Shown: in pieces, positions 1 through 64,000 of the stretch | How the letters are laid out: every line of letters starts with the position of its first letter | How positions within the stretch are numbered: the stretch's first letter is position 1 | Notes under the pieces: model-generated | Databases searched by the model: none | The model's input: only the letters and a program-made list of their open reading frames with translations | What the model was told of the DNA's origin: nothing | From: a virus | Taxonomy: Duplodnaviria; Caudoviricetes | Direction: 5' to 3' (one strand) | DNA length: 64,000 nt | Virus record (IMG/VR): IMGVR_UViG_3300042431_000223 | Span: 11,006 to 75,005 of that record | Program-made: the position numbers and the translations under genes

Positions 1-3000
1 CTGTAGTTTGCCGTGTTAAAGTCAGCTACACTAGTCAACTCACGTAAGCTTTCTTGCTGTGCAATAACTACTCCAAACTGTAACAAATAAGCTATGTTGC
101 GATAAGCTATGTCCTCAGAAGTAGCTAGTTGTTTGGTAGGGTCAAAGTTAGTTAAGTGTTCTTGGATTTTTGGATTTTGTATCAACAACTCTATAAACTG
201 TTGTACAGACTCTTTCCCTTTTACTTTATTCTCTTTCTGTCCCTGTTGTAAATTTACTATTGCACTTTTTAATTCTATGTCTTTAATAGGATCTATAGAA
301 GCCAACAATAATTTTTTGATAGAAGAATACTTACTAGTGAATCTTTTGTTAATCTTGCTGTCAATCTTAGATCTATTTCCCATCTCAAGAACTAACTGTA
401 CAGGACTAGATTTGATAAAGGCAATTACATCTTTTATAGGCGTTCCTGCAAGAATCATAGCATGAGCTAAAGGACTTGTCTCTTGGTTCATCCCTAAAAG
501 AATAATCCAGTCTTCTTTAGCAATATCTACGTGGCCGTTAATAAATTCACTTAGTACCTTAGATATACGATTACCATCTTGTCCTTTCTTACCTCCTAAA
601 GAAATATTACCGTCAGCATCTCTATTAGCTTTTAGGAAGTACATATTAAGTAGAGGGGATTTGTACTTAAGATTAGCTAACTGAAATTCTTTCTGCATAG
701 TGTTAATCTTAGCATCGATACCTAAAGCATCTTTAGACAAGATATTCTCTGCATAAATCCTCCAAGAGGTCATAGGATTAAATACATTGGTAGTAGAGAT
801 AGTAACTCCGTTTCCTGCGTACTCGGTTAGAACGTTATTGTTGTTAGGAGCAACTAAGTAATCATACAACTGACCTATAGACAAAATCTCTTTTAAGGTA
901 GATACTAAGTTATTAGTTATTCCTTTTTTGTAGTTTTCAATCTCGTTAATCTTTTGATTAATCTCTGCAAGATCACTTCGCACTTGTGAAATAATTCCTA
1001 GAGACTTAAAATCTACAGATTGATTAGTTGCTTTTAAATCAGCAATTGCTCGCGATCTTGTTTCTACTTTTTCAGATAGTTTGTCTAAACCTGCAGCTTT
1101 ATCTTCTGGAGTAATTTCGGACCTATCTAACAACTCATTAAGAGCCTTAACACTTTTATCAACTTCTTTATTAAGTTTTTTAAGTTCTTCCTTTAAATCT
1201 TTTCTACGAGCATAGGCTGGATTAGTTTCCAACTCTTCTCTCAGTAATCTACTTATAGAAACTAAACGTTGCTTTTCTCGTTTTAAGTCGCGTTGCTCTT
1301 CTAACTTACTTTTGTAGACTTCAAGATTAAACTCTTTACTTACTATCTTACCATTCTCATCATAAGCTGTTTCGAAGAAAGTTAACTTATCAATGTCATA
1401 GTCACCTCCAGACTTAACTACAATCTGCGCAGGAAGAATCATAACGGCCCCTGAAGACTCAGGTAAGAACTCTTTTATGATTACATGCTCCATAGACTGA
1501 AAGCCTTGTACAGGAATACGTACTCCTGCCATAGTAATTAAGTCTTTATGTTTTTCTCTCCATAGTGCAGCTAAAGGACTATTAGATTTTAGAATTTCGT
1601 TGAGTGTTTGTAGATTTCCAACAGGTTTATCTTTATAAGTTAGCTTAAGTAACCCTGCATGTTTTTCTGGATTAAATCCAATCTTTACCTCCATAGGTAA
1701 AGTCTTACCTGTAGCAGGATCAAATCGGTAGAACTGTAGTTCATTAGCACCGTACTCAGCAAGTTGTTCTGCTGTAGGTTTAGCAAATCTTCTTCGCTCA
1801 AACCCTACTCCTGCAACTTGGATATAACTTTCTCCATGAACCTTTTGATTAATAACTTTGTTATTGATGAAGTTCAGTAGAGTAGATTCAATTTGACTTC
1901 TGTCTTTAATAGCGTCTAAAGGATATTTAAGATTTCCACTCTCATCTATTTGAATAAATTTACGTAAGGATTCTGGAACCTCATTCTTTTCAAACTCCTT
2001 AGTAATATAACTAGCGAGTTGTAATTGATTTAAATTTGTTATGTTACCTTGAGCATCTCTAGTTATTCCTAACTTTCTTTCTAGTTTAACTTGTTCAAAA
2101 GCAACCATATCTTTAACGGTCTTTTTGAATGTGTCGTATAAATTAGATACTTGTGCTTGAGTTTCTTCACTAAAGTCCTCAGACAGTTGACCAAACTCAT
2201 AGAAATCTCCAAACACAAGTTTCATCATCTGTGTAGATAGAGTACTTGTTTCTTTAAATTTAGGAGCTTGATATTGTTGCTGCCTTAAGTTCTGTAGATG
2301 TATTGAAGTTACATTAGCATTTGACAATGCATCGTTAACTACTTTTATCTTACCATCAGGACTATCTACCTCTTTGTAGAAATCAAGCATTTCTCCAAAG
2401 TCTGCCATCTTAGAACCAGACTTAAAGGTATAGTAGTCTATTTGGTTTTTGTACATTAACTCTAGTTGTTTCTCTAATTGCTTTCCAAGTACAGCACTGG
2501 GAACTATTGGAATTAACGAGTACTTATGTAATGCAATAAGTTTAGGATCTTCTACAATAGACCCATAATGCCCTAATTTTAATGGAGGAAAAGGAACTAT
2601 TCCCTGTTTGTTTATTAGACTGTTTCTTTCTTCTATTAACTCTTCAGCATTAGTTGGATTAGTTTTTAACTCAGAACCAATCTGAGCTATTCTAACTTGA
2701 TCGTTGTACGCAGCTTCTTGTTCGTCACTCCAGCCTTCAGTAGAGATTAAATAGTTTCTATAAAAGTCAAGAGTAATTAAACCTTGAGCATTGCCTTCTT
2801 CGTCACTTTTCTTTACATATGCGCTGTATTCAAACTTATCACTTTTTGCTAGTGAGTCCCATAAACCACTATCGTAGACTTCCTTGTAAGTAGCAAATTC
2901 TTCGTCAGTAAAAGTAAGTACGTCATTATAAACTACAGTTCTTACAACGGGGCTAAATTTGTGTTCTACTCCCGTCATTGCAATACTAATTGCATCTTGG

Positions 3001-6000
3001 TTTATGTCTTCTTCAAAAAATTCCTCTAAAGCACTATCCCAGAAAGGAGGAATACCAGGAGAAGAAGTAAAAGGAATACGTTTAAATACCTCGCGTGCAT
3101 CCTTTGCTAGTTTGTTAAAGTTACCCATGTTACCAACAAACATTTTCATAAACTCAACGTTGTGTATGAAACCGTTCTTAAGGTAAGTTTCTGCTAAATA
3201 TTCAATGTTTTCTTTAGTTACTTTTGGCTTAACTCCTTTAGGCAAAAGCTGGGTATTAATAAACTTAAGTTTGTTTAAACTTGTTACAGCCTCAGATAAT
3301 CTTTCTGCTTGTGAAGCTATCTGGCCTTTAGAGTTTACAGGAAAAGATAAAGTCTTAACTAATTCTTTTGCTAGTTTCTTAGCCTCCTGACTAAAATATG
3401 CATCTAATCTATCTGGTAAAATTTGAACAGCTTGGTCATATAGTCTTTGTATATCTTCTTTAGTCTGTGCGTCTTTTACAGCATTAGCTATTTCAGGAAT
3501 TATAGAAGAAAAAATAAATAAGTTCTTACCTTGTTTATGGTACGTAGTATTCGCTCCTTGAGGATTCTCCATTAAATCTAGAACTCTACTAAACTCACCA
3601 GCTAGGTAGTTAGTCATAGTTTCTAGAAAAACTTTTCTAGCAGCTAAGTCTGCTTCGTCTCCTCCTATGCCTTCTAACTTACTGGGTACAATAGGTACGT
3701 ATATCTTTTCTCCTAATACAGGATTACTAAAAGACATACTAAAAGAACTAGACTTATCACCAAAACGAATGTTTTCCATTTCGGTAGATTGAAAAAATCC
3801 TAAAAAGTCTTGAAGTACTTTATCTCCTGGATGTAAGTCTGTAGTAGTTTGTCCTACTTTACTTTCAAACTTTTTAATCTCTAATCCGTTATAATCCCTT
3901 ACTTCAATATCTACAGGCAAACCAAACTTCTTCCTCTTAGTGTACGAATTTAATGGGTTCGCTTCAATCTCTGCAAGTGTAGTAGGCAATCCAAACAATC
4001 TATTTAACCAAAGAGAACCTATAACGTCAGGATTTCTTCTATAATCAAATCTTTCAAATCCTGGAGTATTAATTAACTCTTCGTAGTTTTTAGCCTCATT
4101 AATAGCTTTAGTAGTTTGAGTTAAGTAAAACCAAGGACCTCTTGTAAACTTCTTTTTGTCATCTGCTGTTAAGTACGAACTTGGTCTAAGTTCAATATCA
4201 AAAGTACTTATGTATTCAATTAGTCGTTTAGCTTCTGTTTCTTTTTTAGCTAAGAATCCTTTAAAAGTATTTGCATCTCGGATTCCTTTTCCAGCAAGCT
4301 TATTCTGTGTAACAAAACTGTTTATAACTTCTTGTACGTCTTCAGAAAAGTTTTGCCCATCAGGAAATACTTGATTGTCTGAGTTAGCTATGTACGTAAG
4401 AGGGCCTTTAATTACTATAGTAGGTTTTCCGTTTTTAGCTAATGCATTATTTATTTGATTAGTTAAAGTAAGTTTAAAGAAAACATTAGAGTAAGGCTTA
4501 AAGTTTTCTACAAACACCTCAATTGTCTTATCGATGTTTGATGGTAAAAAGTAATCTTTGTTTGAAAGTCCTGCACCAAGAGCATTAAGAAACTCAGAAA
4601 ATTTATTAATGTAAAAGTCTTTCTTGTTTCCTGTAAACAATGCTTGTATTTTTTTTGCACTTTCTGCAGGAGTGTTTCTGCTAGACAAAGCATCAATAAC
4701 TGTACTATTACTTCCTCCGAACAAAGGAGTAAAATCAGAAACAAATTTAGCTAGGTTAAACTCAACTCCATTTTCTCCTTGGATTGCGTAATCTTGATTA
4801 AATGCAAAGTATTGTTTATCTAGCTGATTAAATAAATTTTTAATATTTCTATATCCTTTGATTTGTTGTGTTACTATTCCTAGGTTTTTTTCATTGTTAA
4901 TGTTTACTGAGACGGCAATTGTTTCGGGATTACTAAAAATTCTCTTTAGTCCCATTGCAAACATAATTTGCTTAATAGTTTTCAAACTTCCTTTTACTCT
5001 AGGATCAGGAAGACGTTTTATCAATAAGTTAAATTGAGGATGAGTTATTGCTAAGTCCTTAATTGCATCATACTGTTTTGTATAATCGGTAATTCCCGAT
5101 AAAGCCGTACTAATTAAGTTCCAGTTTCTTTGGAAGTCTCCCGACTTAGGTAAGCCAAGTAATCCTCCTTTGATTAAAACTCTTTCATCGCTGTTATAGG
5201 GTCTATTTGCATCAAAGTTAAACTCACCTGTAGCAGCTCTTCTGTATGAAGGTAAAGAAGTAACTAAACCTAAGATACGTTTACTTGATCTTTGTTTTTG
5301 TCCTTTGTTAGTCCAATCTTCTCCTTCTCCAATATCTGCGGCTCCTTCATCTACACCTACAACAGTATCTTGACTTAAGTACCATTCTTTAAATAACTCA
5401 AAGTTATCTGCTATTTCAGTAAGAGCTTTAATTTGTTTTACTTGACTAGGTAAAACATTCTTAGGATCTAGTTGACTAACTAATGTATTTTTTTGGTCTA
5501 AAATAGCTTTTTGTGCTTCTGCCCAACTGTTAGTACTTCCCAACAAGTATTCAAAGGTTTCAAAAATCTCTTGTGACTCAGCTTCAGTAAAATGGACTTC
5601 AACAGGAATACCCCCAATATTTGCATTATAAAAGTTGATTGCTCTGTTTGTAGGAATATTTACACTTTGAATTTTTTGAGATAAGATATCATCTTGGATA
5701 CGTTGACGTTGCTCTATATAATCTAGTACTTGATTTAAGTTATAATTACCTGAATCGTTCTTATGGTACTTAGAAGTAAAGTCAGCAAAGAAAGTATCAG
5801 CTATTATCTTTAGAGCCTCTATCCTATTTCCTTTAGTTATAGGATGAGCCATTAGCTCTTGGTATAATGGATTGTCGATTACTTCGTCTCCAACTTTAAT
5901 CTTATCTAAAGGTTGTTCATTGTTTTTATTCCAAACAAATATTATTGAAGATGGCTTCAAGAAACCTTCGTATTCCTTTTCGTAAGGCGTACCTTTTATA

Positions 6001-6014
6001 CTACAAGCGTTCAT
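1..6014 (-). CDS. Virion (injected) RNA polymerase, crAss-type two-barrel RNAP; 3' end runs off the window (>=2004 aa)
   Basis: ATG at 6014 overlaps the TAA of the upstream gene (TAATG). Spot translations at 6014, ~1560-1380 and 60-3 are all in the same open frame, and the ORF track lists no terminated ORF in this frame. Reads ...GVRIPVQGFQSMEHVIIKEFLPESSGAVMILPAQIVVKSGGDYDIDKL, with DYDID at 1389-1403, matching the DFDID-type catalytic motif of crAss-like RNAPs. Confidence 0.9.
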   Translation of the reverse strand, partial: MNACSIKGTPYEKEYEGFLKPSSIIFVWNKNNEQPLDKIKVGDEVIDNPLYQELMAHPITKGNRIEALKIIADTFFADFTSKYHKNDSGNYNLNQVLDYIEQRQRIQDDILSQKIQSVNIPTNRAINFYNANIGGIPVEVHFTEAESQEIFETFEYLLGSTNSWAEAQKAILDQKNTLVSQLDPKNVLPSQVKQIKALTEIADNFELFKEWYLSQDTVVGVDEGAADIGEGEDWTNKGQKQRSSKRILGLVTSLPSYRRAATGEFNFDANRPYNSDERVLIKGGLLGLPKSGDFQRNWNLISTALSGITDYTKQYDAIKDLAITHPQFNLLIKRLPDPRVKGSLKTIKQIMFAMGLKRIFSNPETIAVSVNINNEKNLGIVTQQIKGYRNIKNLFNQLDKQYFAFNQDYAIQGENGVEFNLAKFVSDFTPLFGGSNSTVIDALSSRNTPAESAKKIQALFTGNKKDFYINKFSEFLNALGAGLSNKDYFLPSNIDKTIEVFVENFKPYSNVFFKLTLTNQINNALAKNGKPTIVIKGPLTYIANSDNQVFPDGQNFSEDVQEVINSFVTQNKLAGKGIRDANTFKGFLAKKETEAKRLIEYISTFDIELRPSSYLTADDKKKFTRGPWFYLTQTTKAINEAKNYEELINTPGFERFDYRRNPDVIGSLWLNRLFGLPTTLAEIEANPLNSYTKRKKFGLPVDIEVRDYNGLEIKKFESKVGQTTTDLHPGDKVLQDFLGFFQSTEMENIRFGDKSSSFSMSFSNPVLGEKIYVPIVPSKLEGIGGDEADLAARKVFLETMTNYLAGEFSRVLDLMENPQGANTTYHKQGKNLFIFSSIIPEIANAVKDAQTKEDIQRLYDQAVQILPDRLDAYFSQEAKKLAKELVKTLSFPVNSKGQIASQAERLSEAVTSLNKLKFINTQLLPKGVKPKVTKENIEYLAETYLKNGFIHNVEFMKMFVGNMGNFNKLAKDAREVFKRIPFTSSPGIPPFWDSALEEFFEEDINQDAISIAMTGVEHKFSPVVRTVVYNDVLTFTDEEFATYKEVYDSGLWDSLAKSDKFEYSAYVKKSDEEGNAQGLITLDFYRNYLISTEGWSDEQEAAYNDQVRIAQIGSELKTNPTNAEELIEERNSLINKQGIVPFPPLKLGHYGSIVEDPKLIALHKYSLIPIVPSAVLGKQLEKQLELMYKNQIDYYTFKSGSKMADFGEMLDFYKEVDSPDGKIKVVNDALSNANVTSIHLQNLRQQQYQAPKFKETSTLSTQMMKLVFGDFYEFGQLSEDFSEETQAQVSNLYDTFKKTVKDMVAFEQVKLERKLGITRDAQGNITNLNQLQLASYITKEFEKNEVPESLRKFIQIDESGNLKYPLDAIKDRSQIESTLLNFINNKVINQKVHGESYIQVAGVGFERRRFAKPTAEQLAEYGANELQFYRFDPATGKTLPMEVKIGFNPEKHAGLLKLTYKDKPVGNLQTLNEILKSNSPLAALWREKHKDLITMAGVRIPVQGFQSMEHVIIKEFLPESSGAVMILPAQIVVKSGGDYDIDKLTFFETAYDENGKIVSKEFNLEVYKSKLEEQRDLKREKQRLVSISRLLREELETNPAYARRKDLKEELKKLNKEVDKSVKALNELLDRSEITPEDKAAGLDKLSEKVETRSRAIADLKATNQSVDFKSLGIISQVRSDLAEINQKINEIENYKKGITNNLVSTLKEILSIGQLYDYLVAPNNNNVLTEYAGNGVTISTTNVFNPMTSWRIYAENILSKDALGIDAKINTMQKEFQLANLKYKSPLLNMYFLKANRDADGNISLGGKKGQDGNRISKVLSEFINGHVDIAKEDWIILLGMNQETSPLAHAMILAGTPIKDVIAFIKSSPVQLVLEMGNRSKIDSKINKRFTSKYSSIKKLLLASIDPIKDIELKSAIVNLQQGQKENKVKGKESVQQFIELLIQNPKIQEHLTNFDPTKQLATSEDIAYRNIAYLLQFGVVIAQQESLRELTSVADFNTANY

Positions 6015-9000: not shown

Positions 9001-12000
9001 CAAACTTCAGTTTGCTTGTATCCATGTTTGCTTTAATTAAAAGCATCTCAAACATGTGTGTGTAGTCTTCTTCAAACAGTGGCTTGTCGTTAGCCATTGC
9101 CTCCATTAACTCAAGAGTCTTAACAATGTCTTCGGGAGTAGAACCTGCAGCTTCCATAACAACACGCATTTTAGCTTGTGCGGCTTCTAAAGAATCAGAC
9201 TCTAATATATCTCCTAACAAGTTAGCTATTATAACAGCTCGTTCTTTACTATACTCTTCAGTAGTTACTAACTCTGCTTCAGTTTCATTTTGTGTAGTAA
9301 CCACTTCAGTCTCAGGCATAGATTCTAGCATCTCAACTGCCTCAGTAAATTCTGGAGTAACGTCACTAGGTAAAAGTTCTGGACTAGTTACTTCTATTGT
9401 TTTACCTGTTTCAGAATCTATTTCTTCGGTAGTTACTGTTTCTCTTGCCTCGGTACTAGTATCCGTAGGTTGTGCTGCTTCTCTTCTCTGCCTTCTTTCT
9501 TCTACCTTCTTATCTATGTCTTTTCTGTTTCCGTCTGTAAAGTCTAAGAAACTTCCAGTATCATAAAATACACTTTGAGGAAAACTATCTGCATTCTCAA
9601 TTACCTCAGTTAAAGCAATACCTAAATCATTAGATTGATTAACAATTCCTTGCCACCACTCTGTTTGTTTTTGGTCTCTTTCTTCTTGGTCTTCAATTTC
9701 CAATAATTCTCTTGGAATTACTTTAGTAATTGCTTTTTTAAGAATACCGTCTACCTCTGTTTTTCTATTTGCTATGTCTTCAAATTGATCACTATACTCT
9801 TTAACTATTGCTTCTAGTTCAGCATTTTGCTCGTCGTTTAATTGTTCTATTGCCTCGTCTCTATCATAAGAAGAGTTTTCATCTACTCCTTGTTCCGCAG
9901 TTTGGTTTATGGTATTATAATTTTCTCCTAAAACCGTTTGCAGATACGCGTCTATATGTCTTTCTTGTTCAACTTCTAGTGCTTCAAGTTGTTGGTCAAA
10001 ATAACCATTCAAAAAAGATATTAAATCTTTTCCTCTGTCAGGAGCCAAGTAAGCTTGAGCTAAAGCATTTATTAACTCTTCTTCGCTACTTATACTCTCT
10101 AGGTTAGTTGTAGTATTTGTATTTTCTATATGATCTACAATAGGATTGTAAGTACCTGCTTGTATAGCATTTTCCTCTGCTTGTTTACGTTCTTGTATCA
10201 GAGTAGACAGACTGTCTCTGTACTCCCTCATACTGTCTACAAAGTACTGAGGTCTTTCCTCAGCAATAGCTAATGCAGTAAAGTCATCTACTTCTTTTTC
10301 TACACTTTCTAGATTTGAAGTAGTACTTAATCTTCCTAGTCCTAATTTCTTTTTTACATTATCGTCAAGAACAGCTTTCTTATCTTCGTCTGTCATTTGA
10401 CTATAAAAGTCTGCTCTTTCCTTGTACTCAGAGATTTTTTTGCTAGCCTCTTCTGCTTGTTTTAAAAGTTCTTCTTTTTGTTCTGGAGTGTATGTATTCT
10501 TTTCTAATCCTGTTAACTTTTCTTCTATAGACTTTTGTTTAAGTACATTCTTAAAGTAATCAAACTGAAAGTTAGGATCTTCCATTAAGTCTACTAACTG
10601 AGTTACTTTACCTGCTCTTGCATTTCTCAGTTTACTTATTCCATACTCTTTTTCTACAGATTCAAGTTCTTGGATTTTGCTAATAACTTGAGCAGCTTTA
10701 TCTTGTGACATCTCACCAGCTTTAACTGCCTCTTGTACTTTGTTTTTGTAGTACTGAGAGTTAAGCATAATGTCATACATCTCACCATACTTTCTATTCT
10801 CTTTATATTGCTTAAGTTGGTTTTTTACACCAAAAGGAAAACTAACAAATGCTCCTGCAAATGCACTCTCGATACCTTCTAAAGTAAGTTCTTCTTTAGG
10901 TTTTGCTTGTAGGTTAGCTAGTCCTAAATTACTAGCTGCTACATTTAAGATTTCTGCCGTAACCTCTTCTAATCCTTCTTCTGCTCCTCGACTAATCATA
11001 AGTCTGCCAACAGCTCCTCCTTTTCCTGCTAGGGCTAAAGAGCGAGTTGCTAAATAATCTAACGCTTTGGGAGAAAAAGCATCTCCAAAAACATTTCCAT
11101 ATAATGTTCTATACTGTTGAAAACTTCCTCTCCACGCTTTGCCTAAAACACCTGCTTCTGCAAAATCATCTAAGTAACGCATTTCTGGGAAAACGTTTTC
11201 TGTAAATACTTCAATAGATGTAGTAATACCTGCAACTGCATGTGCTTTTGCACTTGCATTTTCTACACCTCGTTCATACAAATCATTGTAAGTACTTACG
11301 TATGTTTGAGGATAAATTATAGATCCCATAGCTATTGCACCAGGAACCCTTTGACTTAATAGATTAACTAATGGATTTTTACTTGCAGCAGTTACAGTTT
11401 GAAATGCTTTAGAGTAACTGTTGGTAGCTCCTAATATCTGAGTAAATTGTTTTGCTCTGGTAGCAGACATCAAACCTTTACCAATTAGGGTAGTCATTCC
11501 TGCACTTAATCCTCTTCCTGCTAAAGCAGTTATTCCTGTACCTCCAACTAAAGTTGATATAACCAACGGAGTCATTTGTGCTCCTTGATATAATAAAGTA
11601 CTTGGTTGGTAGTGTTTTTCTCCTGATTCATCTATAAATGTATAATCAGCAGTTGTTTGAAATTGTCCTTTTTTGTTTACTCTTTCAAAGTTTACAAGTT
11701 CGTCAACAGTAACCATATTGTTGAATCTTCTTGACTTAGTTTCGAGCCAATCCCATCCTGTCATTTTTCCAACTGCCTCTACCATTTGTCCTGGAATTAA
11801 AGCAGCTCCAGAAAAAAGATGCTGCCCTGTTCTCCAAGTAGTAAATCCTGCTTTCTTCCAATTTGTTTCTCCAAATTGAATCTCAGCTTTTGCTTGCTTT
11901 TTATCTTCTAAGTCTAGGTACGAAGTGAGGAATCCTTTTAACTCAGAATTACTTCTATAGTTTTTAGGATCATGAATTTCTGCAACTTTGGTAATTAGCT

Positions 12001-59156: not shown

Positions 59157-59494
59157 TAAATTAAAAGCCTTTCGTCATTTTCTGTTATTAAGTAACCGTT
59201 TTCGCCTATTCCGTCGTAAAGAAGATAAGCTACTGTTCTGTAAGGTTCCGTAAAATACATAGCCCCATTGGGTAAGCCAGAATTGGTTCTAATGTAGGTT
59301 ATGTAATTTCCGTCTACGGAATCAATGTGCAGTTCTTTTCCTATGAGAGTAACGCCATCTAATAAGTGTACTTTAGCTCTAATTACACTAAAGTCATAGT
59401 TATTCATGGTTACATTTACACTTCGCTTACTCTTTATGAGTGTAACTAGCTCACCAGCATAGCCATTACCCATAAAGTCAAGTCTTTCTCTCAT
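59156..59494 (-). CDS. Hypothetical protein (112 aa), first gene of the late arm
   Basis: ORF track; directly after the promoter at 59500-59529. Confidence 0.55.
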   Translation of the reverse strand: MRERLDFMGNGYAGELVTLIKSKRSVNVTMNNYDFSVIRAKVHLLDGVTLIGKELHIDSVDGNYITYIRTNSGLPNGAMYFTEPYRTVAYLLYDGIGENGYLITENDERLLI

Positions 59495-59499
59495 ACTTA

Positions 59500-59529
59500 C
59501 AAATATATAACTCTATTAATTAAAGTCAA
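59500..59529 (-). promoter_or_regulatory. Bacteroidota primary-sigma-type promoter (TTG-N19-TATATTTG)
   Basis: Minus strand TTGACTTTAATTAATAGAGTTATATATTTG. Confidence 0.7.
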
Positions 59530-59862
59530 CTCCTAATTTGGTTTAGGCACACTACCCCTTAATAAGGATTATACTTCTTAGGTACAGCCGAAGGTTTTAA
59601 GATTTACTACTTTTTATTTTAAGGTATGTTAATATAACCCCCTGTAGTCCCCCAAAGGTAATATCAAAATCCAAAAAGAACCTAAAAGAAGATTTCAACA
59701 TACATAGAAGTAAAGGTTCCCCCGAAGGGCACGTCTTTTTCCGATAGATACTGACCTTCATAAACTCTATCGTAATTCTCCTATAAAAAAACACAACTCT
59801 TTATACCTGTTTATAAGTCAAAGTAAACCTAAAAGTTTAAATCTTAGCTTTACTTTTGTTCT

Positions 59863-60474
59863 ATGTTAAATGCAAACATCCCTCACTTTAAAGCATTAGT
59901 TAAACGTTCTTACCTTACAAAGAACGAAGAAGATACCGAATACGATAACGTTTATGTCTTTGCTGTACAAAGCGTAGCAGGAAAGATCCTAACCTTCCAC
60001 GTTTTAACCGACTACGGTATGCTTAGATCTAGAGTTCCGTTAAGTTCAGTTTATCTTAAAGAACCTACTGACGATATCCCCTATCACTTCAAACAATTAT
60101 GGGATTGCTTTAGTGAAAACTTAAGTGTAGTTCATTATGACTTCTTAAGTGAGCATCGTTGCCAGGTACTGCTAAAGGATAAAACTAAAGTATGGGCAAC
60201 TTATTTATTTACCGTAGACTGGTTTAACAATCCATATAGTGACGAACCTTCAGACTACAAAGCAGGACACATTCTTGTTGCAGACGACGGATATCTAATG
60301 TGTATGCCCAATAACAGAATATACTGGAAAGACTCTAACTGGGTAACTAAAGATTTCCCTCTTCACCCTACTTCGTACAAAGTAGACACAGAACTACCAA
60401 GTGTAGAGAACCAAAGCGATAGATGGATAGCAGAAGACACAGACTCATACTACTATGACATGAATAAAGACTAG
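59863..60474 (+). CDS. Conserved phage hypothetical protein (203 aa)
   Basis: ORF track; normal globular composition (MLNANIP...RSRVPLSS...QLWDCFS). Confidence 0.75.
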   Translation: MLNANIPHFKALVKRSYLTKNEEDTEYDNVYVFAVQSVAGKILTFHVLTDYGMLRSRVPLSSVYLKEPTDDIPYHFKQLWDCFSENLSVVHYDFLSEHRCQVLLKDKTKVWATYLFTVDWFNNPYSDEPSDYKAGHILVADDGYLMCMPNNRIYWKDSNWVTKDFPLHPTSYKVDTELPSVENQSDRWIAEDTDSYYYDMNKD

Positions 60475-60648
60475 TTAATCTGGGATGCGAAAGCTTGGGT
60501 GTGTTATCGGCCCCAAAATTTTTAACCCCCCGTATCACATCATATCTATGAGAGGGTGGGGGATGTAATATAGTATCCCCCCACGTCGGCAACCCGAACC
60601 GACGTACCCCCGTCAGTTTTGCAGAGGTTTATTCTGTTCTATTCTGTC

Positions 60649-60963
60649 ATGATAGATAAATTTAGAAAATTAGTTGCTGTCGCGGAAGAGATGGCAACTT
60701 CGTGGAACGAGAATGAGGTGTGTGTGGATGCAGTTGAAATTCAAGTGGAAGGACATGGAGGCATCGTGCGTCTCGGAAGGATGAGAGAATATGCTGTATA
60801 TCATCCAGACGAGAATCAATACATGCCTGAGTATGCTATGGATTACGATAGCTACTACTACACTTGGATAGATGGTAGGTGGGTGAAGGATGAGCCAATG
60901 ATAGTAGAAGCAAGGAATCCTGTGTGGACAGAAGAGGAAGAGTGGGATGAGTTGCCGTTTTAG
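60649..60963 (+). CDS. Acidic early hypothetical protein (104 aa)
   Basis: The ATG at 60649, after a pyrimidine tract, is preferred to the ORF-track start 60619. Confidence 0.7.
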   Translation: MIDKFRKLVAVAEEMATSWNENEVCVDAVEIQVEGHGGIVRLGRMREYAVYHPDENQYMPEYAMDYDSYYYTWIDGRWVKDEPMIVEARNPVWTEEEEWDELPF

Positions 60964-61008
60964 TGAGAGAGCCTACCTTCGGGTAGGTTTTTTCTTTCTT
61001 CTTCTACT

Positions 61009-61266
61009 ATGATGAACGTAGCTAAAGTATGTTCAAACTTGCCGATGGTAAGAATGAACGATGAGACACTCCTTGATGAAAGAAGTTTAATCGAGGTAAC
61101 AATGGAAGATGGTTCAGGATTTTCCTGGAACATGAAAATGATGGTGAATGATAAAGTGTACAATGCGTACGCAAGATTCACAAACCCTTCATGTAGAATC
61201 GAGTCAATGGTAATTGAAGGAGTACAAGTAAACTTTCATGGTATCATGGCAAAAGTAAACTTGTAA
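61009..61266 (+). CDS. Early hypothetical protein (85 aa)
   Basis: ORF track; preceded by the hairpin/leader element. Confidence 0.7.
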   Translation: MMNVAKVCSNLPMVRMNDETLLDERSLIEVTMEDGSGFSWNMKMMVNDKVYNAYARFTNPSCRIESMVIEGVQVNFHGIMAKVNL

Positions 61267-61310
61267 GAAGAAAACCTGTCCTTCGGGGCAGGTTTATTCT
61301 TTCTTATTCT

Positions 61311-61481
61311 ATGAAGAATGTAACATCTCTCGCAATAGTATTGTTGGTATTAGGATTGATATCAACAATAGGTTCTTACTTGGTACAAGAAGAAGGACTA
61401 AAAGCATGGTTCTATGCATTGGCTTTACTTGGCCAAAGTGTTGGAATACTTGTAATTTGGTTAGAAAATAAGGAACGTTAA
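61311..61481 (+). CDS. Small two-TM membrane protein (56 aa; not in ORF track)
   Basis: Own translation: MKNVTSLAIVLLVLGLISTIGSYLVQEEGLKAWFYALALLGQSVGILVIWLENKER. The leader motif lies directly upstream. Confidence 0.7.
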   Translation: MKNVTSLAIVLLVLGLISTIGSYLVQEEGLKAWFYALALLGQSVGILVIWLENKER

Positions 61482-61506
61482 GTTCCTTTTTTTTCTTTCT
61501 TGTTCT

Positions 61507-61713
61507 ATGGACAATACAGAAGCAACAATCGCAGATGTAGTTACACTTCGTGGCGAAGTCTACCACTACACACATGGCATGTCGTACAGAGAGTTCTGTG
61601 ACAGGAACCCAAACCTTGAAACAAGAAAGGCATGGGATGAAACGACAAGCGATGCAATGGACGCGTACTACGACTGCAAAGAGTACACAGAAAAGAAAGC
61701 AATGGGACAATAG
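61507..61713 (+). CDS. Early hypothetical protein (68 aa)
   Basis: ORF track; leader motif. Confidence 0.7.
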   Translation: MDNTEATIADVVTLRGEVYHYTHGMSYREFCDRNPNLETRKAWDETTSDAMDAYYDCKEYTEKKAMGQ

Positions 61714-61742
61714 TCCCATTGTTTTTTCTTTCTTATTCTACC

Positions 61743-62003
61743 ATGATAGATACACATAAACCACACGTTAAGATTACACAGTACGATCCAGAGAATAGTG
61801 TACTGTTACTACACATTACTTCTGATTTAGGTAATCTAACTGAATTAGTTGTTGACAGTGAATCATTTGCCAATTGGTCAAATGGTATGCTGATTCAAAG
61901 ATGCTTTCCTGAACTTGATTTAGTTACTCGTGAACTATTGATATCAGGAATGGATCCGATAACTCAACAAGAGTTCTTCGGCATTGAAGAAGAAGAGTCC
62001 TAA
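61743..62003 (+). CDS. Early hypothetical protein (86 aa; WSNGMLIQRCFPEL...RELLISG)
   Basis: The ATG at 61743, after the leader motif, is preferred to 61719. Confidence 0.7.
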   Translation: MIDTHKPHVKITQYDPENSVLLLHITSDLGNLTELVVDSESFANWSNGMLIQRCFPELDLVTRELLISGMDPITQQEFFGIEEEES

Positions 62004-62031
62004 CGGACTCTTTTTTTTTCTTTCTTATTGT

Positions 62032-62151
62032 ATGAGAGTTATCGTTATTATATTGATGATTGTAGGATTAGCATCCTGCGCATCAGGTCGTGGACATAGT
62101 TGTAGTAAAGCTAATAAGAACTATTGGCATAATCAACATGCAAACTTTTAA
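62032..62151 (+). CDS. Mini-lipoprotein (39 aa; not in ORF track)
   Basis: Own translation: MRVIVIILMIVGLAS-CASGRGHSCSKANKNYWHNQHANF; LASC lipobox. Confidence 0.65.
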   Translation: MRVIVIILMIVGLASCASGRGHSCSKANKNYWHNQHANF

Positions 62152-62257
62152 AGACTCTTCGGAGTCTTTTTCTTTTCCTTTGTACGGAGAAGAGTCAACC
62201 ACAACCATCTTAAGGAGTAAACAGAGTACGCGGTAGAATTTTTTTCTTTCTTATATT

Positions 62258-62446
62258 ATGGAGAAATATGAATATGTATTCGATGCCTTGGAATCTATCG
62301 TAGTAGATATCCAAGAAGAGTTAATGGAGTCAGAAGACGACTCGCACAAAGAACTACTTAAGCTTGAGGCATCTTTCCTCTTTAACGTAGTAGCCTTGCT
62401 ACACGAAGCTAAAAAGTATCGAGTGCAGATTGAGAAAGGGTCCTAA
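62258..62446 (+). CDS. Early hypothetical protein (62 aa)
   Basis: ORF track; leader motif. Confidence 0.7.
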   Translation: MEKYEYVFDALESIVVDIQEELMESEDDSHKELLKLEASFLFNVVALLHEAKKYRVQIEKGS

Positions 62447-62470
62447 CGGACTTTTTTTCTTTTTGTTTAT

Positions 62471-62614
62471 ATGTCTAATCTAAAACTCAAACCATTACCA
62501 ATCGTCAGAAAATTCCCGAGTGGAACCATTCTTGGACGCATGTACAACGAGAATAACGAATTAGTTAAACTTCGTATCAAACAAGCAGATGCTATATTCT
62601 GGATCTCATTGTAA
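62471..62614 (+). CDS. Early hypothetical protein (47 aa; not in ORF track)
   Basis: Own translation: MSNLKLKPLPIVRKFPSGTILGRMYNENNELVKLRIKQADAIFWISL. Bounded by hairpin elements. Confidence 0.6.
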   Translation: MSNLKLKPLPIVRKFPSGTILGRMYNENNELVKLRIKQADAIFWISL

Positions 62615-62657
62615 GAATAGCCCTGCATACGCAGGGTTTTTTCTTTTCTTTTCTACT

Positions 62658-62975
62658 ATGAGTAATAATACAATAACCATCGAGAAATCCAAGTACCGCG
62701 CGTTACTTGAAAGAGTGTTCCAATTAGAGATTGTAGAACACGGTACACCGTTATCCGAAGCCATCGGTTCAAGAATCGAGTACTACGGATCACACATGAG
62801 ACGCAATGAGATGACGTTAGCTCAAATGCGCTCAGTATTTACAGACATCGCTCTATTATCTGACTACGTAGAGTTAGTAGCAAGCGATGAACAAGAAGTC
62901 CAAGAAGATTTAATCAGGGAAATTGGCAAGGTAGACTTGCGCAAAAACCATGATGATGACACCTTCGGACACTAA
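62658..62975 (+). CDS. Early hypothetical protein (105 aa)
   Basis: The ATG at 62658, after the leader motif, is preferred to 62589. Confidence 0.7.
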   Translation: MSNNTITIEKSKYRALLERVFQLEIVEHGTPLSEAIGSRIEYYGSHMRRNEMTLAQMRSVFTDIALLSDYVELVASDEQEVQEDLIREIGKVDLRKNHDDDTFGH

Positions 62976-63030
62976 CTATTAAACAGAATTAGCCTTACTT
63001 CGGTAAGGTTTTTTCTTTTCTCTTTTACCT

Positions 63031-63369
63031 ATGAGTACCACATTTAACGTAGCTAAGTCTTTGGAAGATATGCTACAAGAAAAACTTTCATCGTTGGAAA
63101 CAACCATGCGCTTTGCTATCAAGTATCAACTTCGTTACTACGAAAGTTGTAAAGAAAAGACTTTGAATCAAGTCTTAGGCAATAGCCAATCTGACTACAA
63201 CTTAGTACAGCACTTCAAGTATCAGGCTACAGTTAAAACAGTTCTTACAGAAATGGAAAGAACTTACTTGGAATACTTCGGTAAACCTTGGGACTACGTA
63301 GAGCCTGCACCCGAAGTAATAGAACCTGTTCGTACTAAGAAACGCGGTCGTCCTTCCAAAGCCAAGTAA
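63031..63369 (+). CDS. Early protein with C-terminal AT-hook-like motif (112 aa)
   Basis: Ends RTKKRGRPSKAK. Confidence 0.7.
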   Translation: MSTTFNVAKSLEDMLQEKLSSLETTMRFAIKYQLRYYESCKEKTLNQVLGNSQSDYNLVQHFKYQATVKTVLTEMERTYLEYFGKPWDYVEPAPEVIEPVRTKKRGRPSKAK

Positions 63370-63405
63370 CACTAACCCCTTCGGGGGTTTTTTCTTTTCC
63401 CTTAC

Positions 63406-63690
63406 ATGAAACTACTTACTCTCATCATAGGAATGTTCCTTGCCACTTCGGTACAGGGACAGAGCAAGCAACTACCAAAGATGTCTTCTGACGACTCTGC
63501 CTTCGTTTTAACTGTAGTTAAAGATATGAAACCCATATCGTACACAGCTACAAAAACTCATCATGGCGTCGTATTAGTAATGGTCTACAAAGACTATACA
63601 CTAATCGAAACACTCGTTGACGGATTCGTTGAAGACTTGGTAGAACTTACTCCAAAAACAGTTTATGTATATCCAAGGGAATCGGAATGA
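63406..63690 (+). CDS. Early secreted protein (94 aa)
   Basis: Signal peptide MKLLTLIIGMFLATSVQG-QSK. Confidence 0.7.
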   Translation: MKLLTLIIGMFLATSVQGQSKQLPKMSSDDSAFVLTVVKDMKPISYTATKTHHGVVLVMVYKDYTLIETLVDGFVEDLVELTPKTVYVYPRESE

Positions 63691-64000
63691 TTCTCTTGGG
63701 TATTTCATTTACTCCGAGCCTACCACAACCATCTTCTTCGCTAATCACAGTACTCGGCCAATTTTTTCTCTCCTATTATACCTTACAATCCTTATACGTA
63801 TATCATAATGGTCCGTAACAACCATCTTACCCTCTAAATAGAGCAGTTAGCCGTAAGTTTTCGTTTAACTAACCTACGAGAACCTTAAACAAAAAGTTAA
63901 ACAAAAGGTCAATGGTCTCAAAAATCACGGGGGTAAGACAAATAAAAGTTAAACAAACGTAATTACCTGACCTCCCTTCGGTCGGTCTTACGCCTTACGG

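Follow-up and report, generated by a model that had tools for sequence, protein, structure and literature searches.

The DNA studied here, referred to as the window, is a stretch of 64,000 nucleotides (nt; positions 11,006 to 75,005) of the IMG/VR virus record IMGVR_UViG_3300042431_000223, and it is the terminal part (64 kb) of a virus contig of 75 kb whose GC content is 36%. Positions below are those of the window, unless another contig is named. Between 60.6 and 63.8 kb, a block of small early genes on the + strand is punctuated by ten GC-rich hairpins with T-runs, and the tract that follows the hairpins is a defined, strand-specific motif of about 20 nt, with a purine at a fixed distance from its first C. 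On the sequence features described here, we put at about even the chance that in these elements a hairpin terminator and a compact promoter of an injected virion RNA polymerase (vRNAP) are fused, with the T-run common to both, an arrangement that would give monocistronic messenger RNAs (mRNAs) with a short leader or none.

Organization of the early block

The preliminary description of this DNA had counted ten hairpin elements, five with TTCG and two with TAAC loops, nine of them leading into an ATG and four holding the upstream stop codon. All of these counts hold. The loops are all 4–5 nt in size, and the stem-to-ATG distance was measured to be 18–22 nt for nine of the ten hairpins. The upstream stop codon is inside the hairpin loop in four cases (stops ending at 61481, 61713, 62003 and 62446), and the stop codons of the block are located 0–40 nt upstream of a hairpin or within its loop. 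The window contains 13 copies of the motif, more than the ten hairpins. They are listed below, where C0 is the first C of the motif and positions such as +12 are counted from C0.

60627–60651, + strand. Variant motif copy before the first cassette, a 104-amino-acid (aa) open reading frame (ORF); C0 at 60634, G at +12 (60646), ATG at +15.
60972–61011, + strand. Element 1; hairpin 60972–60987 with TTCG loop, T-run 60988–60993, C0 at 60994, A at +12 (61006), ATG at 61009 (+15).
61275–61313, + strand. Element 2; hairpin 61275–61292 with TTCG loop, interrupted T-run, C0 at 61299; +12 is the A of the ATG at 61311.
61472–61509, + strand. Element 3; hairpin 61472–61486 with the stop in the loop, eight T, C0 at 61495; +12 is the A of the ATG at 61507.
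61700–61745, + strand. Element 4; 9-base-pair (bp) hairpin 61700–61721 with the stop in the loop, C0 at 61728, A at +12 (61740), ATG at 61743 (+15).
61995–62034, + strand. Element 5; hairpin 61995–62010 with TAAC loop containing the stop, nine T, C0 at 62020; +12 is the A of the ATG at 62032 (39-aa lipoprotein-like ORF).
62153–62186, + strand. Element 6a; hairpin 62153–62166 with TTCG loop, five T, C0 at 62172, A at +12 (62184); no ORF follows.
62239–62260, + strand. Element 6b, without GC hairpin; seven T, C0 at 62246; +12 is the A of the ATG at 62258; sense fold of -0.9 kcal/mol.
62440–62473, + strand. Element 7; hairpin 62440–62451 with TAAC loop containing the stop, seven T, C0 at 62459; +12 is the A of the ATG at 62471.
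62621–62660, + strand. Element 8; hairpin 62621–62636, six T, C0 at 62643, A at +12 (62655), ATG at 62658 (+15).
62993–63033, + strand. Element 9; hairpin 62993–63008 with TTCG loop, six T, C0 at 63015, A at +12 (63027), ATG at 63031 (+16).
63376–63408, + strand. Element 10; hairpin 63376–63387 with TTCG loop, six T, C0 at 63394; +12 is the A of the ATG at 63406.
63762–63782, + strand. Variant copy (CTCT for CTTT), without hairpin; C0 at 63768, A at +12 (63780); conserved non-coding DNA continues to the contig end.

The stem of element 4 can be extended to about 20 bp, as a purine run pairs with the T/C tract. The 62-aa ORF at 62258, after element 6b, is conserved in six lineages. The first copy (C0 60634) is preceded by a structured spacer rich in C-tracts, and not by a T-run terminator, and the same layout is found in three of the relatives introduced below (G001, G006 and L145).

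Conserved positions and register of the motif

The motif reads T5-10, C, TTT, YYY, N, T, W, N, Y, R, Y. Its in-register pattern has 11 matches in the window, compared to 0.91 ± 0.84 expected, and a count of 11 was reached in 0 of 100 shuffles. Nine of the 11 matches are on the + strand, between 60989 and 63027. A scan of related genomes, proposed in the preliminary description, recovered the motif in six more lineages, represented by IMG/VR and JGI contigs (G001, of 107 kb, L006/L085, G006, L145, L146 and L147), with 10–14 copies per genome. Matches on the early and the other strand number 11 and 0 in G001 and 9 and 0 in G006, and an off-register control, one base out, gave 0 and 2 in G006. 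Over the seven lineages (81 kb), the catalogue, which includes orthologues, holds 68 unique copies on the early strand versus 4 on the opposite strand.

A purine occupies +12 in 65 of these 68 copies, with a pyrimidine at +11 in 63 and at +13 in 65. The T at +8 is nearly invariant, and positions +7 and +10 are freely variable. The first nucleotide of an ORF coincides with +12 in 29 copies; in 14 others the ORF begins at +14 to +16 and in 7 at +27 to +30, and the remaining 18 have no ORF start within 34 nt. Among the 39 copies where no ORF starts at +12, the purine is still present in 36, and the purine fraction is 0.10 at +11 and 0.08 at +13. Because the purine at +12 holds in such copies, the motif is anchored to the Y-R step and not to the start codon. 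These counts rest on seeds left unconstrained downstream; a regular expression demanding Y-R at +11/+12 was discarded as circular. Moreover, the idea of a Y-R-Y register was formed on three lineages and then tested with such seeds on three new ones, where R was found at +12 in 23/23 copies, Y at +13 in 23/23 and Y at +11 in 21/23. The conservation of the motif is positional, and not merely compositional.

The composition of the leaders also differs between the two classes of genes, as had been noted before for the T/C-rich early and A-rich late leaders. The early leaders (-18 to -1) have 91% T+C, 7% A and 3% G, versus 52% A for the leaders of 26 late genes. Late and replication genes have A-rich leaders, the opposite of the early type.

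The pyrimidine tract could serve translation instead. The early RNA would then be a polycistronic read-through product, the vRNAP would ignore the hairpins (which would only stop the host RNA polymerase, RNAP, or stabilise the RNA), and the U/C tract would be an unstructured, S1-type ribosome loading site. Such purine-poor leaders are expected to be unstructured, and 43 of the 68 copies are located no more than 16 nt from the ATG of an ORF. In addition, Bacteroidota are described as making no use of Shine-Dalgarno (SD) pairing (PMC6847099), and no early promoter motif was found in phi14:2, a crAss-like phage. However, the register follows the Y-R step and not the ATG, being kept where the ATG is elsewhere or absent, and the 18 copies without an ORF within 34 nt include those of a conserved ORF-less cassette. 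The conserved features are individual positions (T at +8, C0 and the three T after it) rather than a composition, the late and replication genes of the same phage do without such leaders, and transcription would have to pass ten consecutive strong terminators. We regard a translation leader as unlikely.

A second possibility is RNA processing, in which a host or phage endoribonuclease would cut a polycistronic early RNA between Y11 and R12, leaving a protective 3' hairpin on one product and a 5'-terminal AUG on the next, as with RNase III of T7. The Y-R step is cleavage-like and at a constant distance from a conserved motif, there is a hairpin at every 3' end, and several stems reach 13–20 bp by pairing of purine runs with pyrimidine runs. 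Nevertheless, a strong terminator directly upstream would starve the site of substrate, and a sequence requirement of 20 nt is unusual among known endoribonucleases. Copies without a hairpin, and copies heading long operons, suit a start signal better. We therefore consider processing improbable; like a translation leader, it explains the ORF-independent register less well than a promoter does.

Hairpins as probable terminators

Ten sites were found that have a GC stem-loop on the coding strand and at least five T within 0–2 nt of it, our definition of an intrinsic terminator. A scanner for terminator-like sites reported 16, versus 2.8 ± 1.4 in shuffles, and in the whole 75-kb contig nine of ten coding-strand sites with a hairpin and five T fall in the early 2.5 kb. 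The early hairpins have UUCG and GNRA-type loops, with G-U pairs in their stem extensions, and folding favours the sense over the antisense strand in 37 cases, with the reverse in 15. Between lineages, a compensatory change from A-T to G-C has taken place in the orthologous stem that follows the 104-aa ORF. From these sequence features, a function of the hairpins as intrinsic-type RNA terminators for the upstream units is well supported. A reading of the elements as integron-attC-like sites was rejected on account of their short stems, which are those of terminator-type hairpins; no search for an integrase gene was made. Neither 59400–64000 nor the arrays of the relatives contained a credible Rfam family.

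A hairpin abuts 51 of the 68 motif copies, and the other 17 have none. Conversely, the relatives contain hairpin and T-run terminators that are followed by ordinary A-rich leaders, without the motif. Stem sequences differ among elements and lineages and have no conserved bases, while the motif persists. The hairpin and the motif are thus two separable modules. With a T-run of 5–10 nt, the distance from hairpin to motif is loose, while that from C0 to the purine is fixed.

These observations bear on the earlier proposal that the hairpins are vRNAP promoters, by analogy with phage N4, producing short-leader or leaderless mRNAs. Its second half is retained here in the form of a compact promoter, while the N4 form, in which supercoiled DNA would extrude the GC hairpin as the element that the virion RNAP recognises, did not stand. 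There are inverted repeats ahead of most early genes, and the phi14:2 RNAP prefers single-stranded templates. Nonetheless, the loops have 4–5 nt and not 3, the stems share no conserved bases, the distance from hairpin to purine varies by 5 nt, and the hairpin is missing from 17 of the 68 copies. Moreover, the G-U pairs and UUCG loops indicate structures in the sense-strand RNA, and the RNAP here is of the two-barrel and not the T7-like type. A hairpin promoter of the N4 type is scarcely credible for these elements. It had also been proposed that the terminators silence toxic early genes for the host RNAP, with read-through by the vRNAP. Terminators acting on the host enzyme only are not needed to explain the array; that proposal leaves the fixed Y-R register and the motif copies before ORF-less units unexplained, and is therefore less favoured than a promoter.

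Relatives and cassette exchange

In G001, the array occupies the first 6.5 kb of the rightward arm. Further along, single motif copies stand ahead of each long replication operon, and the genes inside these operons have A-rich leaders.

The homology between the window and G001 is a mosaic, with breakpoints at 60995, 61740, 62014 and 62485, in or bordering the elements. One orthologous hairpin precedes different cargo, an ORF in one lineage and an ORF-less unit in another (L081 and L085). The preliminary description had listed gene-shuffling junctions like those of PeSL elements among its possibilities, and the coincidence of breakpoints and elements agrees with it. Comparison of these sequences supports PeSL-like shuffling of cassettes at the elements. 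Of the three alternatives offered there, the promoter in its compact form and the shuffling are the ones that are kept.

The same breakpoints, together with the T-run expected behind any intrinsic terminator, could be taken to mean that the elements are plain terminators, and that the tract downstream plays no part in expression, being a scar of recombination or a by-product of composition. This would leave unexplained why the invariant positions and the Y-R-Y register persist in seven lineages despite turnover of stems and cargo. Copies without a hairpin, the strict orientation and the arm-specific use of the motif also speak against plain terminators, which we judge to be very improbable.

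Two arms with different signals

Pfam recognised Crassvirus major capsid and muzzle proteins in the window. By these protein matches, the phage is classified as a deep-branching, uncultured crAss-like phage; its closest capsid match among GenBank phage records has only 27% identity, and megablast of the early region against phage GenBank records matched nothing. All structural genes are leftward, reaching 59761. The rightward arm begins at 59863 with a 203-aa gene, and eleven small ORFs come after it. At 64000 the contig breaks off, just short of a C/G-homopolymer hairpin present in relatives, and because the relatives carry this hairpin right there, the end is an assembly break and not the end of the genome. 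The RNAP homologue at the other end of the window and the small ORFs are as follows.

3–6014, - strand. Virion RNA polymerase homologue, N-terminal 2004 aa of 2792 aa; DYDID at residue 1538; presumed reader of the motif.
60649–63690, + strand. Eleven small ORFs (cassette cargo) of 39–112 aa; nearly all are ORFans, with almost no family matches.

The region around DYDID matches RNAP genes of 98 crAss-like phage records by tblastn, and searches of PHROGs, Pfam and PDB sequences with the giant proteins, including the 2792-aa one, gave no recognition. The DYDID motif and the tblastn matches identify the 2792-aa protein as a homologue of the crAss-type two-barrel RNAP. The catalytic motif is DYDID here and DFDID in gp66 of phi14:2.

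In phi14:2, the injected RNAP, which is resistant to rifampicin, transcribes the entire rightward arm, and the host RNAP transcribes the leftward arm from sigma-70-like promoters (bioRxiv 10.1101/2020.03.07.982082). Host-type promoters of the form TTGAC-N17-TATATTTG are present in seven leftward-arm intergenic regions of the window, resembling the middle/late promoters described for phi14:2. The seven are near-identical (TTGAC, about 17 nt, TATATTTG) and are located on the minus strand at 59507, 53967, 46468, 39916, 30081, 22275 and 18437. A -7 box is also found before the 203-aa gene. In the early block, the absence of host promoters noted earlier was confirmed, with zero matches to the Bacteroidota -7 box TAnnTTTG on the + strand of 60600–63700. 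Sigma-70-like matches in the block number 7, versus 11.6 ± 3.2 expected, which is below chance, and none is in the + strand gaps. The earlier statement that the gaps leave no room for a promoter is correct for sigma-type promoters, and does not extend beyond these. By its signals, the window has the same two-arm dichotomy as phi14:2.

The motif might also be read by the host RNAP with an alternative or phage-supplied specificity factor, rather than by the vRNAP. The -12 element and the Y-1/R+1 geometry are reminiscent of the -12 to -5 box of Bacteroidota promoters (PMC9723704), and the motif is lineage-specific. However, it is unlike the TAnnTTTG box or its variants in PMC9723704, and it serves the genes that open the arm whose transcription resists rifampicin in phi14:2. 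A phage-encoded factor would be absent before phage gene expression, unless it is injected. A host enzyme with such a factor has little probability in our view.

The first gene of the rightward arm, the 203-aa gene (59863–60474), matches PHROG 3704 ('ferredoxin', host-takeover category). Its host-type -7 box is just 4 nt ahead of the ATG, and for this reason the gene would also be leaderless. The gene is found at 69–85% identity in 349 IMG/VR loci of unrelated phages, some of them high-GC. Relatives recruited through this cosmopolitan moron were mostly unrelated phages and were dropped as uninformative.

Three of the small ORFs have recognisable features. The 39-aa ORF (62032–62151) looks exported, with a lipoprotein-type signal, and the 94-aa ORF (63406–63690) also looks exported, with an N-terminal signal peptide. 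The 56-aa ORF (61311–61481) encodes a membrane peptide of two helices, for which there is a weak holin-family match.

Units without ORFs and non-coding stretches

Between the copy at C0 62172 and the next T-run lie about 55 nt that contain no ATG. A conserved unit of about 120 nt with no ORF stands directly behind a motif copy in three relatives (G001, L146 and L147), and its end is formed by a hairpin and T-run. The core of this unit is strongly conserved, and all of its frames are stopped in two lineages. It is located at L010:9816-9960, L146:2891-3030 and L147:5391-5525, with an internal hairpin present. The unit matched no Rfam family and does not occur in the window. These features make it a candidate early small RNA.

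In the region 62153–62246 of the window, the 5' arm of the 6a terminator stem has an alternative partner, a complement of 8 nt some 30 nt farther downstream, and a purine run is available for pairing with the pyrimidine tract. Judging from the complementarities, this region is a possible alternative-structure switch.

The non-coding segment 63881–63987 is 78–89% conserved in five lineages, above the flanking ORFs. It contains three perfectly conserved direct copies of the 12-nt AAGTTAAACAAA and has a weak predicted structure (-6 kcal/mol). Rather than belonging to a structured RNA, these copies may be repeats bound by a protein (iterons or operators). The 11-nt word ACAACCATCTT occurs three times in the non-coding parts of the block (at 62200, 63723 and 63820), and the related CATCTTAAG is at corresponding places in the relatives.

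The spacer before the first cassette (60475–60648) is a C-tract-rich stretch of 174 nt, with two GC hairpins that lack T-runs, and it is conserved in relatives. The metagenome contigs L145 and L149 terminate within it. Metagenome contig ends were set aside as evidence for RNA ends, being ambiguous because repeats also break assemblies.

A model for the early array

In the promoter model, the block consists of small transcription units in series, each complete in itself. A GC hairpin and its U-run would in each case terminate the unit upstream, and the T-run of the terminator would double as the upstream part of the pyrimidine motif, acting as an early promoter for the injected, crAss-type (two-barrel) vRNAP. 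The first nucleotide transcribed would be the fixed purine, 12 nt past C0. About half of the predicted mRNAs would be leaderless, the purine being the A of the ATG; most of the others would have a leader of 2–4 nt and a few one of 15–18 nt. A leaderless start is predicted for 6 of the 13 copies in the window and 29 of the 68 overall, and all of these ORFs begin with ATG. Some units would produce short non-coding RNAs.

Leaderless translation needs a 5'-terminal AUG, and for that reason each small gene must be its own unit. The need for one transcript per gene would explain the presence of a terminator and a start signal in every gap of 25–55 nt. The shared T-run could let scarce injected polymerases re-initiate where they terminate, and the repeated signals would double as recombination junctions for the exchange of cassettes.

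In its full form, the model has the motif (from about -18 to -1) as the recognition sequence of the injected two-barrel RNAP, with +1 at the fixed purine, leaderless one-gene mRNAs and a hand-over from the terminator by way of the T-run. We advance this form tentatively, giving it slightly less than an even chance. Both the purine as the 5' end of the RNA and the vRNAP, rather than another enzyme, as the reader of the motif are inferred.

Several points weigh against the model. The motif is confined to one sub-lineage: G004, G005 and G007, with 60–68% identity in a flanking protein, are without it and have A-rich leaders. For phi14:2, primer extension gave no common motif upstream of the early 5' ends, and the RNAP was inactive on double-stranded M13 DNA and weak on native phi14:2 genomic DNA in vitro (bioRxiv 10.1101/2020.03.07.982082), being efficient on single-stranded or denatured DNA (bioRxiv 10.1101/2020.03.07.982082). 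Because of these results, a sequence promoter is not established for the crAss-type RNAP class, and no defining sequence features of its early promoters are in print, phi14:2 being the only crAss-like phage studied. Leaderless mRNAs make up only about 5.5% of the mRNAs in a flavobacterium (PMC9723704). The source phage is uncultured and without a close isolate. Within the data, counts based on the 68 copies overstate the number of independent events, since some entries are orthologous; the proximity of many copies to an ATG keeps a role in translation conceivable; and the T-run serves two possible roles that are inseparable by sequence alone.

The motif-less relatives may have a signal of their own. 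In L143 (G004:C1:19000-36000), a complete 114-kb genome, the A-rich AAACTAAAT occurs six times on the early strand and 0 times on the other, often after a short T-run and with no fixed spacing to start codons. It may be another dialect of the early signal.

For the promoter recognised by the injected RNAP of crAss-like phages, this lineage offers a sharp, multi-copy candidate consensus. The motif predicts the start nucleotide and the positions to mutate, and natural controls exist in the copies without a hairpin, the hairpins without a motif and the copies without an ORF. If the model is correct, this would be the first promoter for the crAss-type RNAP class, part of a phage programme that relies on leaderless mRNAs in hosts making no use of SD pairing, and a case of PeSL-style cassette shuffling independent of host-type promoters. 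If the tract is a translation or processing signal instead, it would still be an undescribed, position-specific RNA element.

Comparison with known systems

The early promoters of N4 are template-strand DNA hairpins with a 5–7-bp stem, a 3-nt loop, conserved bases and a fixed distance to +1 (PMC4496689). The likeness to the present array consists in an injected RNAP for the first genes (inferred here), inverted repeats by the early starts and the preference for a single-stranded template. In comparison, the hairpin loop, conserved bases and fixed ruler of N4, and its T7-like enzyme, have no counterpart here.

The RNase III sites between the early cistrons of T7 are long, irregular stems without U-runs, in one long transcript from upstream host promoters. 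They resemble the present elements in having a hairpin between every early cistron and RNAs that end in a stabilising 3' stem. The stems here differ from them in being short, GC-rich and followed by a U-run, like intrinsic terminators.

The resemblance to phi14:2 concerns the overall plan, with a rightward arm opposite a leftward arm that has host-type promoters, and a homologous giant virion RNAP. In both phages, the early arm has non-coding stretches close to its start, and those of phi14:2 are transcribed early. However, the early region of phi14:2 does not have this architecture; its leaders are A-rich, and there are only three hairpin and T-run sites in 12 kb.

The PeSL elements of T4-type phages are composite terminator/promoter motifs with breakpoints at the elements (PMC2839356; PMC4122927). 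The present array is similar in having a composite motif of terminator and start signal in every gap between the arrayed small early ORFans, a stem-loop just upstream of the start signal (51 of the 68 copies), a motif that is slightly different between phage lineages, and indel or replacement breakpoints between relatives at the elements. There is a clear difference in the start signal itself. PeSL elements have a sigma-70-type -35/N17/-10 promoter for the host RNAP and an SD site, neither of which is present here, and because of these they need about 60 nt or more. In the array described here, the ATG is 18–22 nt from the stem, the signal is a pyrimidine motif, the mRNAs are predicted to be leaderless, and the reader is presumed to be an injected two-barrel RNAP.

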